A DNA stretch of 64,000 nt, taken from contig RFSE01000011.1 in assembly GCA_009924135.1 (NCBI GenBank), positions 921-64,920 on the forward strand, in the 5' to 3' direction. Positions 8,514-64,000 of the stretch are shown in pieces. Position 1 is the stretch's first letter. Every line of letters starts with the position of its first letter. Below the pieces are notes generated by a model. The model had not been told where the DNA came from and did not search any database. It saw only the letters and a program-made list of their open reading frames with translations. The DNA comes from Pseudomonadota bacterium. GTDB taxonomy: Bacteria; Verrucomicrobiota; Verrucomicrobiia; Limisphaerales; SXTU01. Both the position numbers and the translations under genes were made by a program.

Positions 8514-8551
8514 CGGATGTTTCTGTGTTTCATCTGTGTCCCATCTGTGGC
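8514..8551 (+). promoter_or_regulatory. solo tri-iteron arm (ATCTGTG-type repeats at 11-bp spacing) upstream of the zinc-ribbon gene
   Basis: cggatgtttctgtgtttcatctgtgtcccatctgtggc. It has the same architecture as the arms of the MITE-like elements at 31370 and 45887, and ends 15 nt before ATG 8567. Confidence 0.55.
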
Positions 8552-9141: not shown

Positions 9142-10857
9142 CTACTTCACCACCATGGCGCTGAACGGCAGGACGTAGGCCTGTAAATAGACGAAGATTC
9201 CCACGAGGGTCGCCAGCGCAAGGCTGTGGAAGAAGACGTAGCGCAGGATGCTGCCTTCGTGGCCGTACCAGTTCGTCGCGGTGCTCGCCACGACGATGCT
9301 TTGCGCGTCCACCATCTTCCCCATCACGCCGCCGGAGCTGTTCGCGGCGGCCATGAGCACAGGGCTGATGCCCGTCTGCTCCGCCGTGATCCGCTGGAGG
9401 CTCCCGAAGAGCACGTTGCTCGCGGTGTCACTGCCCGTCAGCGCCACGCCCAGCCAGCCCAGCAGCGTGCCAAAGAACGGATAGAGCGAACCGGTTTTGG
9501 CCAGCGCCAGGCCAAGCGTGGCATCCGTGCCGGAGTATTTGGTGACGTAACCGAGGGCGAGCATCGCGGCGATCGTGATGAGCGAAAAGCGCACGTTCCA
9601 CAAAGTACGGCGATAGACCCGTACCAGTTCCATCAGCGAGAATCCCATGTAAAACCCGGCGAGGATCGCGGCCACGAGGATTCCGGTGCCGGTAGCCGAG
9701 AGCCAGTTGAACTTAAACTCGGCCGCCTCGGGTTTGGTGGGCTTTTCCGGAGTGGGCTGCGGCACCACGGGGAACGTCCGAACCGTGGCGTTGTGCAAAC
9801 GGGGAATTTCCCATTTCGGGGACGACAAGGCATCCAGCCGCTGTTTCATCATCGGCACGCCCCAGAGGAAAACCAGCACGCTGAGCAGCAGCCACGGCAC
9901 CCAGGCACGGCGAACCAGTGATGCGTTTGGGGGTTCGAGTTTCGAGTTTCGAGTTGGCGCGTTGCTGTTCGATTGCGCGGCGGCGTCCGAACCCGAAACT
10001 CCCAACTCCAAACTTGGAACATTTCCCGACACCCACCCATCCTTCGGCTGCCAGACCTTGAGCAGGGCCACCACGGCTCCGAGCGAGCACAGCGCCGCAA
10101 CGATGTCCACCAGCCATGGACCATGGTAATTCGAAACCAGAAACTGCGGCACCGCGAAACTCACGCCCGCCGTCAGGCAGGCCGGCCACACGCCGAGCAT
10201 CCCGCGCCAGCCAGCATAAGCCCACACGACCCAGAAAGGGACGATAAGCGAGAAGACCGGCAGTTGCCGGCCGATCATCGCCGACACGGCATGCAGGTCG
10301 AGGCCGGTAACGCCAGCGAGCGCAATGACCGGCGTGCCCAACGCGCCGTAGGCCACCGGCGCAGTGTTGGCGATGAGGGAAAGACCGGCGGCCTGAAGGG
10401 GCTTGAAACCCAGCTGCATCAGGATCGCCGCCGTGACGGCCACGGGCGTGCCGAAACCCGCCGCCCCCTCGAAGAACGCGCCGAAGCTGAACGCGATGAG
10501 CACCAATTGCACCCGTGGGTCAGGTGCCAAGTCCGCGAGGCTCCCACGCAGGACCGCAAACAAGCCTTTGTCCACCGTGAGCTGGTAAAGGAAAATCAGG
10601 TTCAGAATGATCCATCCGATGGGAAATAAACCATATGCCGCGCCCAGACCGGCCGTCGCAAGCGCGGCATCCGCAGGCATCCGAAACGCCAGCAACGCCA
10701 CCGCCAGGGCCACGCCCAAACCGAGCAACGCAGCGAGGTGGATTTTGATTTCCAACCAGGCGATGGCCCCCAGCAGCACCACCACCGGGAGGGCGGCAAC
10801 GAGCGTTGAAAGCCAGGGGTTTCCGAGCGGGTGGTAGTTTTGCGGCCAGGGTGCCAT
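9142..10857 (-). CDS. lctP: L-lactate permease (LctP family)
   Basis: 571-aa polytopic membrane protein. The N-terminus WPQNYHPLGNPWLSTLVAALPVVVLLG and the overall pattern fit the LctP/LldP family. Carries a low-complexity insert encoded by the heptamer element at 9934-10014. Confidence 0.85.
   Translation of the reverse strand: MAPWPQNYHPLGNPWLSTLVAALPVVVLLGAIAWLEIKIHLAALLGLGVALAVALLAFRMPADAALATAGLGAAYGLFPIGWIILNLIFLYQLTVDKGLFAVLRGSLADLAPDPRVQLVLIAFSFGAFFEGAAGFGTPVAVTAAILMQLGFKPLQAAGLSLIANTAPVAYGALGTPVIALAGVTGLDLHAVSAMIGRQLPVFSLIVPFWVVWAYAGWRGMLGVWPACLTAGVSFAVPQFLVSNYHGPWLVDIVAALCSLGAVVALLKVWQPKDGWVSGNVPSLELGVSGSDAAAQSNSNAPTRNSKLEPPNASLVRRAWVPWLLLSVLVFLWGVPMMKQRLDALSSPKWEIPRLHNATVRTFPVVPQPTPEKPTKPEAAEFKFNWLSATGTGILVAAILAGFYMGFSLMELVRVYRRTLWNVRFSLITIAAMLALGYVTKYSGTDATLGLALAKTGSLYPFFGTLLGWLGVALTGSDTASNVLFGSLQRITAEQTGISPVLMAAANSSGGVMGKMVDAQSIVVASTATNWYGHEGSILRYVFFHSLALATLVGIFVYLQAYVLPFSAMVVK
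9934..10014. repeat. inverted heptamer arrays flanking a 39-bp core, inside the lctP CDS
   Basis: ttcgagt x3 perfect (9934-9954), a core at 9955-9993, then cgaaact cccaact ccaaact (9994-10014). The right array is the inverted counterpart of the left (agtttcg family). Total 81 bp = 27 codons, in frame. Confidence 0.85.
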
Positions 10858-25146: not shown

Positions 25147-25424
25147 TCCACCCCTGGAGGAGCTCAACGAACCTCGAATTCCGGCGACTTCAACCCGTCG
25201 ATTTTTGAATTGCCCGGGGCTGTTTGGACTAAAAGCTTCCTCCAATATTCCTGCCCAAAATCTTCCTGCCATAAGTTCGGCTCCTGAAATTGCGATGCAG
25301 ACGATTGGTGCCGAGGAAAACCAGCGCGAGACCGTCCCTTTTACCTTTTTACTTTTTCCTTTTGCCTTCGCCCCGCGCCCAATTTCCGCTGGCCCACCCC
25401 GGCCCCGGTCTTTAAAACAGCCGC

Positions 25425-31369: not shown

Positions 31370-31523
31370 CCACAGATGAAACACGGACGGAACACGGATG
31401 GGGACGAGCGGAGCACGCGTATTGTCGCAGTTGCCTGCCTGGACCAAACGGTGCGGGTCAAACAGCGGGGCAACGCGGCCCCGGCACCGTTGGCTCCGTG
31501 TTTAATCCGTGTTCCATCCGTGG
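31370..31523. mobile_element. MITE-like element, copy 1 (terminal inverted repeats made of triple iterons)
   Basis: The left arm ccacagatgaaacacggacggaacacggatgg and right arm ccgtgtttaatccgtgttccatccgtgg match at about 23 of 28 positions as inverted repeats. About 90% identical by hand alignment, without indels, to 45887-46040. Similarity extends about 14 nt further right. Confidence 0.75.
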
Positions 31524-35217: not shown

Positions 35218-36006
35218 CTACTCCTCCGCGTGCACTCCAGCAGAATGGCTGCACACGCCCCGCTTGGTGGTGGCCACAAAATCGAGCAGTTGCCGGGCTG
35301 CGGCACCGGTGACGGTCGCCTCCGCTTCGGCCAGCGCGTCCCGGCGCAGTTTGCCACTGAGGAAGAGCAGATGGTAAAGGCGCTTGAGCTCCGTGCGCTG
35401 CTCCGCAGCGAAACCGCTCCGCCGCAGGCCGATGGTGTTCAAGCCACAGATCATGTTGATCCCCGTGGCGATGCAGAAAGGCGGCACGTCCTTGCTCACC
35501 GCCGCGCCGCCTTGCAGCAACGCCAGCGGACCAACGCGGCAGAACTGATGCACCAGTGAGTTCGCCGAGAGGAACGCACGCTCGCCGATCACCGCGAAGC
35601 CGGCGATGGCAATGCCGTTGCAGAGAATCGCGTAATCCTTCACCTGCACGTCGTGGCCGATGTGCGCATTGCCCATGATAAAGCAGTGCGAGCCGATGGT
35701 CGTGGCGGTGTCTTCCTTCGTGGAGCAATGGATGGTGGCGTGCTCGCGGATGATGTTGTCATCGCCGATGACCAGGCGCGTCGGTTCGCCCTTGTACTTC
35801 ACATCCTGCGGCGTGTCGCCCACCACGGCTCCGGCGTGGATGCGGTTCCGCGCCCCGAGAGTCGTATGGCCGGTGAGATGCACAAACGGGCCGACGACAC
35901 AGCCGGGGCCCAGCGTGACGTGCCCCTCAATCACGGCGTAGGGACCGACCTGCACGTCGGAGGCGAGCTGGGCGGTGGGGGCGATGAGGGCGGTAGGGTG
36001 GATCAC
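35218..36006 (-). CDS. lpxA: acyl-ACP:UDP-N-acetylglucosamine O-acyltransferase
   Basis: GTG start. IHPTALIAPTAQLASDVQVGPYAVIEGHVTLG hexapeptide repeats, plus GDTPQDVKYKGEPTRLVIGDDNIIREHATIH. Confidence 0.9.
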   Translation of the reverse strand: MIHPTALIAPTAQLASDVQVGPYAVIEGHVTLGPGCVVGPFVHLTGHTTLGARNRIHAGAVVGDTPQDVKYKGEPTRLVIGDDNIIREHATIHCSTKEDTATTIGSHCFIMGNAHIGHDVQVKDYAILCNGIAIAGFAVIGERAFLSANSLVHQFCRVGPLALLQGGAAVSKDVPPFCIATGINMICGLNTIGLRRSGFAAEQRTELKRLYHLLFLSGKLRRDALAEAEATVTGAAARQLLDFVATTKRGVCSHSAGVHAEE

Positions 36007-36015
36007 GGGGGGAAA

Positions 36016-36120
36016 GTGTTCAGTAATCAGTGTTCAGTTTTCAGTCATCGCAGACGCCGACAGCCGTCGGAGTGGACTCAAAACTGAAAACTGAAAACTG
36101 AAAACTGAAAACTGAAAACT
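36016..36120. repeat. inverted heptamer arrays flanking a 34-bp core (radC-lpxA spacer)
   Basis: Left array gtgttca gtaatca gtgttca gttttca (36016-36043). Core catcgcagacgccgacagccgtcggagtggactc, with ccgac-agcc-gtcgg. Right array aaaactg x5 plus a partial copy (36080-36120), the inverted counterpart of the left array and abutting the radC stop codon. Confidence 0.9.
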
Positions 36121-36827
36121 CACACATAGAAAAGTCCCAGCTCCCGCAATGACACAAAATCCCTCGGCCGCTCGGTCGTCCGATGGCCGATGATCACATG
36201 GTCGGCAACCTCGATCTTGAGCAACCGCCCGGCGCGGATCAGGTCGCGGGTGATCCGGATGTCTTCTTCGCTGGGCGTGGGATCACCGCTGGGGTGGTTG
36301 TGGACCAGCACGATCGAGGAGGCATTCGCGAGGATGGCGTGCTTGAACACGTCGCGCGCGTGGACATGGACGGAATCGAGCGTCCCGTGCGAAAGGTGCT
36401 CCATGCGAATGAGCCGGAGGCGGGTGTTAAGGAGCAACACAATCAAATGCTCCACCTCGTAACCACGGGCCTCTTCGCGCACGAGGCTGGCGATAAGTTC
36501 GGGCGAATTCAGCAACGGGGATTCGGCGCGGATCTCGGCAGCCATGCGCCGTGCCAGCGTGAATGCGGCCTGCAACGTCACGGCCTTGTCGCGCCCGATG
36601 CCTTTCACTTCGCAAAGCTCCTTCACGGAGGCCTGCGAAAGCCGGTCCAGCGTCTGAAACTTCGCGAGTAATTCCTGCCCGATCACCAAGGCGGATTTAC
36701 CCTGCAAGCCGGTGCGCAGGAGAATCGCGATGAGTTCCGAATTGCCGAGCGCATCCGCGCCGCCGGCGGCGAGCCGCTCGCGCGGCCGCTCGTTCGCGGG
36801 GATGTCCTTGATGCGGACGCTGCTCAT
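36120..36827 (-). CDS. radC: RadC-family JAB/MPN domain protein
   Basis: Trimmed to ATG 36827 (MSSVRIKDIPANERPRERL). Contains a helix-hairpin-helix (LCEVKGIGRDKA) and HNHPSGDPTPSEED. Confidence 0.9.
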   Translation of the reverse strand: MSSVRIKDIPANERPRERLAAGGADALGNSELIAILLRTGLQGKSALVIGQELLAKFQTLDRLSQASVKELCEVKGIGRDKAVTLQAAFTLARRMAAEIRAESPLLNSPELIASLVREEARGYEVEHLIVLLLNTRLRLIRMEHLSHGTLDSVHVHARDVFKHAILANASSIVLVHNHPSGDPTPSEEDIRITRDLIRAGRLLKIEVADHVIIGHRTTERPRDFVSLRELGLFYV

Positions 36828-45886: not shown

Positions 45887-46040
45887 CCACGGATGAAACA
45901 CGGACGGAACACGGATGGGGACGAGCTGAGCACGCATTCTGTCGCAGTTGCCTGCCGGCACCAAGCGGTGCGGGTCATGCAGCGGTGCGGAGCGGTCCCG
46001 GCACCGTTGGCTCCGTGTTTAATCCGTGTTCCATCCGTGG
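45887..46040. mobile_element. MITE-like element, copy 2
   Basis: ccacggatgaaacacggacggaacacggatgg ... ccgtgtttaatccgtgttccatccgtgg. About 90% identical to 31370-31523, with most differences in the interior. It lies between the ATPase start (45789) and the prc stop (46093). Confidence 0.75.
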
Positions 46041-62031: not shown

Positions 62032-62979
62032 TTACTTCCGCCGCCATTCGATCTTCGGTGGTTCGGGCAGTCCCTGGGCCCGGAGGGCGGTGCGGAAGTG
62101 CATCTTTCCCACGCGGGCCAGCCCGGCCACGCCGTGTTGCTCGAAGATCTGCTTGGCCACCTTGTCCACCGCAGCGGACGCGCCTTTGGGCAGTTCGATG
62201 CCCAGGTCCCGGCCCATGGCCGCGAGCCGGGTCACAAACTCGTGCCGGGCGAGGATCGAGGCGGCGGCCACGGCGAGGTCTTCTTCGGCCTTGTGCCGCT
62301 GCACGAGCTTCAGCTTCAGTCCGCGCGCCTTGGCTTCCCGGGCGACGGTGCTCTCGGTGGCGGCGAACTGGTCGATGATCGCGTGGGCGGGCGGCGGGTT
62401 CAGATGATGCGCCGGGGCCAGCAGGGCCAGGATGGAACTGACGTGGCCCTTGGCAAGCAGGGGGTTGAGGCTGCGTTCCTCGCGGTACCGCTGGTTGTAA
62501 TTCACGCCGCCGAGGGCGAGGACTTCGCTATGACAGCCGGGCGTTTCGCGGATAAGCTTGGCGAGGTCGGCAATGCGCCGGTCACTGCCGATGTTCTTTG
62601 AATCCTGGATGCCGGCATCCTTCCACGCGCGCACCACCTCTTCGTTCACGTAAACCGCTGCCACACACAGGGGGCCGAAGAAATCGCCCTTGCCCGATTC
62701 GTCCACGCCGATGCGGGCGGTGAACATCTCCGGGTGCAACACCTCTTCGTAGCCCAGTTCAGCCTGCTTCAATATCTCCGGCTCCAGCACGAACTCGACG
62801 AATTCCTGCGTGCCCTTGCCCTGCACGACGAGCTTGCCACTGTCGTAGAAGACGACGTTGAGTTTGTCCTTCTCACCGGCGAACCGCGCGTAGGGGACGG
62901 TGCGGGGCTTGAAGCCGTGCTCGCGCAGGTGGGCGTCCAACTGGGTCGCCTGCGCGTCCGTCAGCTTGCAGGTGTGCAT
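62032..62979 (-). CDS. rnhC: ribonuclease HIII
   Basis: Trimmed to ATG 62979 (MHTCKLTDAQ...). Has an N-terminal TBP-like domain (VVFYDSGKLVVQGKG) and an RNase HII/HIII core (IGVDESGKGDFFGPLCVAAVYV, DSKNI, AASILAR). Confidence 0.9.
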   Translation of the reverse strand: MHTCKLTDAQATQLDAHLREHGFKPRTVPYARFAGEKDKLNVVFYDSGKLVVQGKGTQEFVEFVLEPEILKQAELGYEEVLHPEMFTARIGVDESGKGDFFGPLCVAAVYVNEEVVRAWKDAGIQDSKNIGSDRRIADLAKLIRETPGCHSEVLALGGVNYNQRYREERSLNPLLAKGHVSSILALLAPAHHLNPPPAHAIIDQFAATESTVAREAKARGLKLKLVQRHKAEEDLAVAAASILARHEFVTRLAAMGRDLGIELPKGASAAVDKVAKQIFEQHGVAGLARVGKMHFRTALRAQGLPEPPKIEWRRK

Positions 62980-63002
62980 GGTCAGCGGTTTCACGGCGCG
63001 GA

Positions 63003-63030
63003 GTTTCGGGTTTGGTGTTTCCGGTTTCGA
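63003..63030. repeat. heptamer array GTTTNNN x4
   Basis: gtttcgg gtttggt gtttccg gtttcga, 24 nt upstream of the rnhC ATG. Confidence 0.8.
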
Positions 63031-63047
63031 GTGCAAACTTCACCCGC

Positions 63048-64000
63048 TTGAGATTTAGTCCAAAGTCCAAAGTCCAAAGTCCAAAATCGCAGCCTGCCGG
63101 GCGCGCACTGGCCACACGCAGCGCAGCTTCCGCCATTCCGCATTCCGCATTCCGCATTCCACCTTCCCTCGTCCCTGCCCTGCTCGGTTGGTTCGCCGCC
63201 GCCGCACGCGACCTGCCCTGGCGACGCACGCTGGACCCCTACGCCATCTGGATCAGCGAGATCATGCTGCAACAGACGCAGGTGAAGACCGTCATCCCGT
63301 ACTGGGAACGCTGGCTGCGTGAATTGCCGGACGCCGCCGCCCTCGCCGCCGCGCCGGAGCAACGCGTGCTCAAGCTCTGGGAAGGCCTGGGCTATTACAC
63401 GCGCGCCCGCAATTTGCAGAAGGCCGCGCAGCAGGTCGTGAGCACTCACGGAGGCCGCTTCCCGCACGCGTTTGACGCCATTTTGGAATTGCCCGGCGTG
63501 GGCCGCTACACGGCCGGCGCGATTGCCAGCATCGCCTTGAACCAGCCCGCACCCATCGTGGACGGGAACGTCATCCGCGTGCTCACCCGCCTCTTTGCCA
63601 TCGGGGAAAATCCGCGCGACAAGGCGACGAACGAACAGCTCTGGCACCTCGCCACGCAACTGGTGCAGGCCGCCGCTCGAATTACGAATTACGAATTACG
63701 CATCGCGGGGCTGGTCGTTTCCGGAGCGTGTTCGGCGCTGAACCAGTCGCTCATGGAGTTGGGCGCGACGGTCTGCACGCCGCAAAGCCCGCAGTGCCTG
63801 CTGTGCCCGGTACGCCCCCATTGCGCCGCGCACCGGGAGGGCCGCGTCGGCGAACTGCCAAACCTCGGGCCGCGCACCGCGACCACGAGCCGGGAGTTTC
63901 ATGCCTTCGTTGTGAACTGTGACGGAAAGTTGCCTGTGACACAAAGGCCCAGCGGCGGAGTGAATGCGGGCTTGTGGGAGTTTCCGAACGTGGAAGTCAC
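63048..64000 (+). CDS. mutY: A/G-specific adenine DNA glycosylase MutY (3' end outside the window; start unresolved)
   Basis: Own translation; not in the ORF track because there is no stop in the window. From 63180: LLGWFAAAARDLPWRRTLDPYAIWISEIMLQQTQVKTVIPYWERW...GLGYYTRARNL...LPGVGRYTAGAIASIA...VDGNVIRVL...NQSLMELGATVCTPQSPQCLLCPVRPHC (HhH-GPD plus 4Fe-4S Cys cluster). There is no in-frame ATG upstream. Candidate starts are TTG 63048, GTG 63015 and TTG 63012. Confidence 0.85.
   Translation, partial: MRFSPKSKVQSPKSQPAGRALATRSAASAIPHSAFRIPPSLVPALLGWFAAAARDLPWRRTLDPYAIWISEIMLQQTQVKTVIPYWERWLRELPDAAALAAAPEQRVLKLWEGLGYYTRARNLQKAAQQVVSTHGGRFPHAFDAILELPGVGRYTAGAIASIALNQPAPIVDGNVIRVLTRLFAIGENPRDKATNEQLWHLATQLVQAAARITNYELRIAGLVVSGACSALNQSLMELGATVCTPQSPQCLLCPVRPHCAAHREGRVGELPNLGPRTATTSREFHAFVVNCDGKLPVTQRPSGGVNAGLWEFPNVEV
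63057..63084. repeat. perfect heptamer array AGTCCAA x4
   Basis: agtccaa agtccaa agtccaa agtccaa, read directly. Confidence 0.95.
63134..63161. repeat. heptamer array CATTCCG x3 + CATTCCA
   Basis: cattccg cattccg cattccg cattcca, read directly. Ends 18 nt before the first conserved MutY codon. Confidence 0.95.
63678..63698. repeat. perfect heptamer array CGAATTA x3 inside the mutY CDS
   Basis: cgaatta cgaatta cgaatta (21 bp, in frame) encodes RITNYEL. It lies within a segment that is about 18 aa longer than the corresponding E. coli MutY loop before the NQ..M.LGA motif (comparison from memory). Confidence 0.9.

Follow-up and report, generated by a model that had tools for sequence, protein, structure and literature searches.

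Precedents for repair genes inactivated by slippage in simple repeats are mutY of Helicobacter pylori and mutL of Salmonella. In the former, according to the part of PMC8875331 that cites Huang, Kang & Blaser (2006), slippage in a homonucleotide tract eliminates function and raises the mutation rate. In the latter, 6-bp tandem repeats act as a mutability switch (PMC2955026). Heptameric repeats form another class, over-represented in many bacteria and barely studied (PMC4692102). For the over-representation of 7-nt repeats, PMC4692102 also refers to a survey of 2007, and it cites tandem heptanucleotide repeats in cyanobacteria (Calothrix). TAACTGA repeats of 2–6 copies are found just upstream of start codons and at the termini of open reading frames (ORFs) in Beggiatoaceae, Cyanobacteria and Bacteroidetes (PMC4679880), and the tandem repeats of Borg elements create intrinsically disordered protein regions (PMC9879509). 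The literature searches made yielded no report of heptamer repeats in Verrucomicrobia. The present analysis concerns the heptanucleotide arrays of a mutY gene, encoding an adenine DNA glycosylase, in a stretch of 64,000 nt of contig RFSE01000011.1 (GCA_009924135.1; Limisphaerales, Verrucomicrobiota). This stretch is called the window, and all coordinates refer to it.

The first-pass annotation of the window had reported that mutY lacks an upstream ATG, and that its canonical starts precede two arrays of four 7-bp units, AGTCCAA and CATTCCG. It had proposed that these might constitute a phase-variable mutator switch. Both arrays are real. They were recovered by Tandem Repeats Finder (TRF) and by a scan for exact runs, in frame upstream of position 63180, where the conserved N-terminus of MutY (LLGWFAAAARDLPWRR) begins. 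TRF returned AGTCCAA ×4.1 at 63057–63085 (100% matches, score 58) and TTCCGCA/CATTCCG ×4.6 at 63128–63160 (score 57). The exact-run scan delimited 63057–63085 (4.1 copies) and 63134–63160 (3.9 copies).

The explanation that we consider probable is that the arrays encode part of a disordered N-terminal extension of MutY, starting at TTG 63048, the frame of which is kept by purifying selection in a lineage that generates 7-bp arrays genome-wide. The protein would consist of 402 amino acids (aa), its first 44 residues being disordered, basic and rich in Ser and Pro. Most of the extension would be written by the two arrays, with the 7-nt unit read in all three frames, resulting in the 7-aa peptide periods SPKSKVQ and HSAFRIP. 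The arrays themselves would be local outcomes of a tendency, common to the lineage, to generate 7-bp tandem repeats and to make them uniform; such repeats would settle in leaders between genes and, where this is tolerated, at the termini or in the surface loops of proteins. Selection would keep mutY ON, by way of three-unit (21-bp) steps or of one-unit changes offset by other indels. Single-unit slips would have to arise and, with MutY truncated, would result in a G:C to T:A mutator; no majority allele of this kind is seen. The features concerned are the following.

63033–63039, plus strand: conserved box GCAAACT; every close ortholog with a standard spacer has it, as GCAAA[CG]T.
63048–63050, plus strand: proposed mutY start TTG, the sole canonical start between the box and 63180 and the positional homolog of the GTG or ATG of orthologs.
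63048–63179, plus strand: putative N-terminal extension of 44 codons, LRFSPKSKVQSPKSQPAGRALATRSAASAIPHSAFRIPPSLVPA.
63057–63088, plus strand: array B, AGTCCAA ×4.1 exact or ×4.6 with a degenerate end, which would encode SPKSKVQSPKS (TRF, ortholog comparison).
63089–63133, plus strand: G+C-rich, non-repetitive spacer between arrays B and C, varying in length and sequence among orthologs.
63134–63167, plus strand: array C, CATTCCG ×3.9 exact or ×4.9 with CATTCCA CCTTCC, which would encode IPHSAFRIPPS (TRF, ortholog comparison).
63180–64000, plus strand: conserved MutY body, with the HhH-GPD domain, the four-Cys iron-sulfur loop and the start of a NUDIX-like domain, continuing past the end of the window.

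The mutY frame is open upstream beyond 62940, the point to which it had previously been followed, as far as TGA 62910. It contains no ATG and three canonical starts, TTG 63012, GTG 63015 and TTG 63048, as first listed. From the box GCAAACT to 63180, TTG 63048 is the only ATG, GTG or TTG in any frame. The segment 63057–63161 measures 105 bp, and the earlier calculation that this is a multiple of three holds. The distance from TTG 63048 to 63180 is 132 bp, or 44 codons.

Ortholog DNA was obtained with a degenerate pattern for PWRRxLDPYA[IV]W, used against metagenome contigs, and by look-ups of individual proteins. The set comprises 33 contigs with the rnhC–mutY layout, corresponding to 23 distinct haplotypes of Limisphaerales-like Verrucomicrobiota; loci are designated by L-numbers. 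All counts are from assemblies, which report the majority allele only. The MutY proteins nearest to that of the window have around 80% identity with it, and the named ones are labelled as Limisphaerales or Verrucomicrobia metagenome-assembled genomes (MAGs). The codon homologous to TTG 63048 reads GTG in 21 haplotypes and ATG in L089, the window alone having TTG. This codon shares the frame of the LLxWF motif in 23 of the 23 haplotypes, thus in all 33 contigs. Except in L178, where the box was not found, it lies 7–9 nt past GCAAA[CG]T in every close ortholog. From this codon to LLxWF, the extension has 14 different lengths (28, 29, 30, 32, 34, 35, 36 and 38–44 codons). At least 13 independent length changes have therefore all preserved the frame, for which the chance is around (1/3)^13. 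In L100, L145, L120 and L082, an in-frame stop is found 44–63 nt upstream of the GTG, with no other canonical start between, so that the GTG is the 5′-most canonical start. The other two frames carry stops in some haplotypes (L175, L180, L182), the mutY frame never. As non-coding DNA with 7-bp repeats has no reason to change in threes only, the conservation of the frame speaks for translation. Together with the conserved start codon, the frame kept over 14 lengths points to a translation start at TTG 63048 and its homologs, upstream of both arrays, as the first-pass annotation had supposed. From these comparative data, arrays B and C are most likely translated.

Two other starts have been annotated in the window.

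63156–63158, plus strand: ATT start of the NCBI protein NBV21046.1 (MPPSLVPALLGWF...; 366 aa), rejected.
63264–63266, plus strand: ATG start of the contig's own call P0001 (MLQQTQ...; 330 aa), rejected.

The contig's own call is that of ENA contig DAMP20-1_SAMN10254600 scaffold_104, of ENA/Prodigal type. A start at ATG 63264 would drop 28 conserved residues. The ATT 63156 codon is not conserved, being replaced by CAT, TTT or CTG in L100, L097 and L089. More generally, ATT 63135, ATT 63156 and CTG 63108/63180 are not conserved as starts in orthologs, and they would leave the conservation of the frame unexplained. The start of this gene has thus been placed at three codons by three pipelines or readers, and with TTG 63048 the protein would be 72 residues longer than in the contig's own call and 36 longer than in that of NCBI. 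Around 10 of the best 120 homologs are also called from MLQQTQ, and others from MLDWF, MLGWF or MVPALL. It was considered that such short calls could be frame-broken OFF alleles. This was rejected, as 10 of 10 loci fetched (L173–L176 and L178–L183) have an intact upstream frame and the GTG. Among them, L173, L178, L179, L180 and L183 had received the same MLQQTQ call as the window. The short calls are artefacts of the gene callers, as in the window itself, and dozens of orthologs in public databases bear similarly truncated calls.

The MAG that carries NBV21046.1, identical to the MutY of the window, is labelled 'Proteobacteria bacterium', whereas all close named relatives are Limisphaerales or Verrucomicrobia. 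Its taxonomic label or bin assignment is probably wrong.

The product is a MutY by its HhH-GPD domain and motifs, its four-Cys loop and its NUDIX-like domain. The full length of 402 aa from TTG 63048 was taken from L172. The motifs SEIMLQQT and VDGNV are present in the translation, and their residues E71 and D172, which we take to be the catalytic Glu and Asp of MutY, are invariant in 68 homologs. The same comparison shows C243, C250, C253 and C259, the iron-sulfur cluster loop, to be invariant. PF14815 (NUDIX_4) matches the contig's own mutY product. In the PDB, the product matches Geobacillus stearothermophilus MutY (E = 1e-68) over query residues 44–316, and solved MutY structures have no counterpart before residue 44. 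The window extension contains 7 Lys and Arg, no Asp or Glu, and 15 Ser and Pro in 44 residues; the corresponding values in 20 tabulated haplotypes are 5–11, 0–2 and 11–17. An AlphaFold2 model built with 68 homologs has a mean predicted local distance difference test (pLDDT) of 88 overall and values below 50 for residues 1–24, a low pLDDT being a proxy for disorder only. The pLDDT climbs over the segment encoded by array C. The repeats thus most likely encode a segment that is predicted to be disordered. The basic, disordered tail might aid non-specific DNA binding.

The cluster of proteins at 90% identity that is represented by the window MutY also contains many quinolinate synthases (NadA) of 343 aa. 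The NadA gene is immediately downstream of mutY in L173. The presence of NadA in the MutY cluster is probably a clustering artefact arising from a fused or read-through ORF.

In orthologs, array B is found at the same place as AGTTCAA, AGTTCCA or AAAGTCC arrays, with around 4–5 units in most. In L180 it has 6 units, a shorter segment further upstream restoring the frame; in several haplotypes (e.g. L082, L089, L120) the array is decayed. Among orthologs with the LVPA segment, the end of array C is fixed, at −13 to −15 from the LL codon. The array has only two lengths, 4.3–5.1 units or around 1.9 units, which differ by exactly 21 bp. The expanded form was detected in 12 haplotypes, including the window, L100, L118, L120, L141, L152, L174–L176, L179 and L180; L183 has the expanded length by inspection of its sequence. 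It extends from around −50/−43 to −13 relative to the LL codon and is shifted in L141, which lacks the LVPA segment. The contracted form is found in 7 haplotypes (8 contigs): L111/L145, L149, L098, L181, L182, L097 and L173. The units of array C are of the type CNTTCNN, with CATTCCG, CGTTCCG, CCTTCAA, CCTTCAT and CCATCAT. They are uniform within an array and differ between orthologs, a pattern that, judged from the aligned haplotypes, is one of concerted evolution.

The first-pass annotation, correct about arrays B and C, had missed two further arrays, one within the body of mutY and one in the spacer that separates it from the divergent rnhC gene.

63678–63700, plus strand: internal array, CGAATTA ×3.3, perfect, encoding RITNYELRI (TRF).
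63002–63033, no strand assigned: array A, the degenerate heptamers GAGTTTC GGGTTTG GTGTTTC CGGTTTC GAGT, in the rnhC–mutY spacer.
62032–62979, minus strand: rnhC, RNase HIII-like, with its ATG at 62977–62979 (MHTCKL...), from the ORF list.

The internal array occupies a 17-residue surface-loop insertion relative to solved MutY, which forms a coil segment in the AlphaFold2 model. In orthologs, this site has other units in 3.0–5.6 copies and forms a stretch of 24–29 aa between fixed flanking motifs. Its units are often related to those of array C in the same or a related haplotype: CATTACG is found with CATTCCG, CGTTCCG is found at both sites in L175, and CTTTCAA at both the internal and the N-terminal site in several haplotypes.

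The region 62980–63180 lies between the two divergent genes, rnhC on the minus strand and mutY on the plus strand. The contig's own call of rnhC has 315 aa and matches Pfam PF11858/PF01351 (DUF3378 and RNase_HII). This divergent layout is seen in all close orthologs. The spacer between the two genes is 68 bp in the window, most of which is filled by array A; every close ortholog has this array too, in the form GAGTTTCGGGTTTGGCGTTTCGGGTTTCGAGT or GAGTTTCGAGTTT.... Array A contains TTG 63012 and GTG 63015, which are not conserved, the orthologs having TTT GGC GTT at that position. In L178 (GCA_964496695.1, contig CAZCBE010000091.1), the spacer is around 560 bp instead of the usual 70 bp or so. 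It contains an inserted segment bearing a long inverted repeat (CCCTCACCCCTGCCCTCTCCCGCTGGGAGAGGG ... CCCTCTCCCAGCGGGAGAGGGCGGGGTGAGGG), and the GTG start and the arrays are still in frame.

Two observations bear on a possible exchange of extensions between strains. L145 has the rnhC-proximal sequence of L100 and the mutY N-terminal extension of L111, and the MutY proteins of 394 and 387 aa are near-identical past residue 70 or so, with very different extensions. These haplotypes suggest that homologous recombination shuffles extensions between strains.

Several points weigh against a translated extension starting at TTG 63048 and kept ON by selection. No Shine-Dalgarno-like sequence precedes TTG 63048, TTG is a weak start codon, and a sigma-70 promoter scan of 62700–63400 found nothing. 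The 68 bp that separate this codon from the divergent rnhC ATG offer scant space for two promoters and a leader; it may be speculated that the conserved GCAAACT box is the −10 element of a leaderless mRNA. Two annotation pipelines prefer other starts, ATG 63264 and ATT 63156, and the disorder is deduced from pLDDT. The turnover of the arrays also leaves room for a switch. The arrays are near-perfect over around 20% protein divergence, with uniform units specific to each ortholog, which would mean that they turn over faster than by point mutation, so that frameshifted variants would have to arise at an appreciable rate. Slips of one unit should be more frequent than those of three, and the resulting OFF variants would have to be removed or to revert. 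As assemblies give the majority allele only, switching at low frequency may be compatible with the data.

The arrays of mutY are part of a wider class. The window contains five exact period-7 arrays of at least 3 copies, for 0.00 expected from first-order Markov resamplings. Period 7 is the only one from 6 to 12 with such arrays, in the window as in the close-clade loci described next; periods 4 and 6 show no excess, and of the periods from 5 to 12 none but 7 is enriched. Loci of the close clade contain 21 exact period-7 arrays in 144 kb, a set that is enriched for the mutY locus itself; none was found in 419 kb of control loci of other phyla. The outgroup for these counts came from a scan of contigs with a MutY fragment, in which, among the matches listed, the relatives had at most 66% identity. 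There is thus a lineage-specific excess of few-copy period-7 arrays. The exact arrays of the window and of the close-clade loci have 3.0–4.6 copies at 25 of 26 sites, the remaining one having 5.9. There is no dominant unit, units being different at every locus. Those of the window are TTCGAGT, AAACTCC, AGTGTTC, ACTGAAA, AGTCCAA, CATTCCG, CGAATTA and CCTTTTT, of which only ACTGAAA (i.e. AAACTGA, array 36076–36120) is one base from TAACTGA. A TTC-N4 consensus common to the units of all arrays was suggestive and not robust, and it is not claimed. Since equivalent arrays are found genome-wide and lineage-wide, those of mutY are not a device specific to this gene.

In other parts of the window, arrays are paired in inverted orientation, with a G+C-rich core between them. 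At 36015–36120, in the gap that separates a radC-like gene (stop at 36120) from lpxA (GTG start at 36006), two minus-strand genes, AGTGTTC-type ×4.4 and ACTGAAA ×6.4 arrays are inverted around a G+C-rich core with its own 5-bp stem. On either strand, folding of this region gives a long hairpin, with −45 to −47 kcal/mol and z = −6.2 to −7.0. At 9934–10014, TTCGAGT ×3.1 and AAACTCC ×2.7 arrays, roughly inverted, are within a minus-strand ORF (9142–10857, 571 aa, lactate-permease-like). This module is translated in frame as ...VPSLELGVSGSDAAAQSNSNAPTRNSKLEPP... (VPSLELGVSG...TRNSKLE), a second case of heptamers tolerated in coding sequence, and its unit is the same as that of array A (GAGTTTC) upstream of rnhC. 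At 25337–25368, a degenerate CCTTTTT ×4.6 array is found around 55 nt upstream of ATG 25426, thus in a putative 5′ leader. Arrays with an 11-bp unit, CACGGATGAAA ×2.7 and TCCGTGTTCAA ×2.5, are inverted around a 95-bp G+C-rich core at 45888–46039, with a Prc/CtpA-like protease gene on one side and a GspE/PilB-like ATPase gene on the other; the RNA fold has z = −2.9. The 11-mer recurs at 31495–31522, with a related unit at 8522–8549, and these units may represent a second dispersed repeat family.

It was considered that array B, the core and array C could form an inverted-array hairpin module of the same kind. The arms are not complementary, and the RNA of 63040–63185 is no more structured than its shuffles (z = +0.52), versus z = −6 to −7 for 36008–36125; the module was rejected.

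A phase-variable mutator switch, in which a one-unit change in array B, array C or the internal array would reversibly toggle MutY and for which the arrays would be maintained, would imply that the population always holds a G:C to T:A mutator subpopulation. The mechanism is possible. Arrays B and C have a unit not divisible by three and lie between the start and the functional domain. The first-pass annotation was right that gain or loss of a single unit would truncate MutY: in simulations, translation ended after 76 or 93 aa when one unit was added to or removed from B or C, and the 402-aa product was restored by combining one more unit in B with one less in C. The switch would also account for units that are uniform within an array and different between orthologs, which require repeated contraction and expansion, and for copy numbers that vary across species (around 4–6 for B in most, decayed in several; 1.9 or 4.7 for C). 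The cases of H. pylori mutY, in the cited part of PMC8875331, and of Salmonella mutL (PMC2955026) would be precedents; for the same reason, the novelty that had been implied for a switch in a repair gene was too strong.

The contigs examined do not support an operating switch. None of the 33 contigs (23 haplotypes) is out of frame, which sets a one-sided 95% upper bound of around 9% for OFF as the majority allele. No copy-number difference was found in five groups of contigs that are identical across the region (L082 ×7, L097/L114, L098/L157, L111/L145 and L176/L177; 15 contigs from several samples). Between L173 and L097 there are substitutions inside units, and the number of units is unchanged. 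The 394-aa and 387-aa MutY haplotypes recur on many contigs, as 3 and 7 exact-sequence variants, without change of length. Neither repeat-number polymorphism nor the coexistence of ON and OFF alleles was thus found in the contigs examined. The only length states seen preserve the frame, array C changing by its 21-bp step alone. The mutY arrays are short, with around 4 units, and equivalent arrays occur where switching makes no sense, in the permease loop and in intergenic hairpins, so that a mutational process suffices to explain them. The comparison of mutY 5′ regions in relatives that had been suggested as a check supported the upstream start and the kept frame, and yielded no OFF or copy-number variants within identical groups. 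A maintained, functional switch of mutY is unlikely. The same low likelihood is given to a clade-wide version, in which slippage in mutY would drive a mutator switch that is reversible and of low frequency, with three arrays and built-in compensation. In that version, OFF slips would outnumber the fixed three-unit changes and would continuously seed mutator subpopulations.

Equally improbable is that the arrays, albeit translated, are kept mainly as a periodic binding site on DNA or RNA (CNTTCNN or TTCNNNN) for a lineage-specific protein. Binding would fix the position of an array and its length of around 4.7 units, and it would be compatible with the repeat-encoded extension. In 11 of 12 expanded haplotypes, array C indeed spans −50/−43 to −13/−15 from the LL codon with 4.3–5.1 units, despite different units; N-terminal and internal units of one gene are related (CATTCCG with CATTACG; CGTTCCG and CTTTCAA at both sites); and the copy range of 3.0–4.6 at 25 of 26 sites is narrower than free slippage predicts. 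The narrow range inside mutY is, however, explained by the constraints of frame and length alone. The similarity of units is loose, and the binding protein and the shared motif are hypothetical. As the degenerate arrays of L082, L089 and L107 demonstrate, the gene can persist when its repeats decay.

A more doubtful proposal is that the arrays belong to an untranslated 5′ leader, MutY starting at ATT 63156, ATT 63135 or CTG 63180. The arrays would then be leader or promoter elements, e.g. unstructured A/C-rich sites bound by proteins of the S1, Csp or CsrA type, a role that has been proposed for TAACTGA repeats. The annotation of NBV21046.1 from ATT and the leader-like lack of structure of the RNA 63040–63185 are in line with this proposal. 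The heptamers of Beggiatoaceae are located just upstream of start codons, with few Shine-Dalgarno sites (PMC4679880), and array A and the 36015–36045 array are at the leader positions of rnhC and lpxA. However, a leader gives no reason for an in-frame GTG over 14 lengths, or for the 21-bp-only steps of array C. The ATT codons are not conserved in orthologs, whereas the GTG or ATG is conserved and often unique.

Finally, it is very improbable that mutY is a pseudogene with a start destroyed by repeat expansion, or that the repeat numbers are mis-assembled, despite the missing ATG and the reputation of repeats as a classic source of assembly error, since 358 further codons of the body are intact and include every invariant MutY residue, an NCBI MAG records the identical protein from ATT 63156 onward, the 7-mer arrays of around 30 bp are shorter than a read, and 32 independent contigs, which come from many samples and assemblers, share the architecture.

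The mutY arrays indicate that a conserved repair enzyme can bear heptanucleotide repeats at three fixed sites over long evolutionary time. They would offer a clean case from nature of selection on the reading frame in repeats with a unit that is not a multiple of three. With the lineage-wide arrays, the little-studied bacterial heptamer repeats are now described in Verrucomicrobiota, too. Should slippage in the arrays reach an appreciable rate, mutY would be a hotspot at which spontaneous mutators emerge, in bacteria that abound in soil and freshwater.

Compared with known systems, the window mutY resembles H. pylori mutY, as described in the cited part of PMC8875331, and Salmonella mutL in that a simple repeat is present in a repair gene and that slippage would abolish function; H. 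pylori mutY is of the same gene family. It differs by its 7-nt unit, by its three arrays, two of which can compensate each other, and by the absence of OFF alleles and copy-number polymorphism in the 33 contigs. Salmonella mutL changes length in frame and not by frameshift. Switching was measured experimentally in both of these genes, within what the source cited for H. pylori relates, whereas the window mutY is known from sequence alone.

The repeats of Haemophilus influenzae hmw1A/hmw2A are reported to be in the promoter, with tens of copies, to differ from isolate to isolate as well as within isolates, and to tune a surface adhesin. In contrast, the window mutY has around 4 copies per array, inside a housekeeping coding sequence, with no variation observed. 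The 7-bp unit and a slipped-strand mechanism are the points in common (PMC8262952).

The known bacterial heptamers have several features in common with those of the window: some are at ORF termini, where they give 7-aa periods, they often form inverted pairs, and they vary in length and sequence between genomes at the same locus. Those of the window differ in being from Verrucomicrobiota and in having many units rather than one dominant unit. Those of mutY differ further in their location, within a conserved enzyme at three sites of conserved position, and in the demonstrable selection on the frame. As in Borg elements, fast-evolving nucleotide repeats within ORFs would add disordered segments of low complexity to proteins. 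The repeat units in Borg ORFs are said to be divisible by three. In mutY, the unit of 7 nt is not, and the frame is kept via three-unit quantisation or compensation. The mutY arrays therefore belong to known kinds, and what is less familiar is the combination of three positionally conserved 7-nt arrays in one enzyme, three-unit quantisation and concerted evolution.

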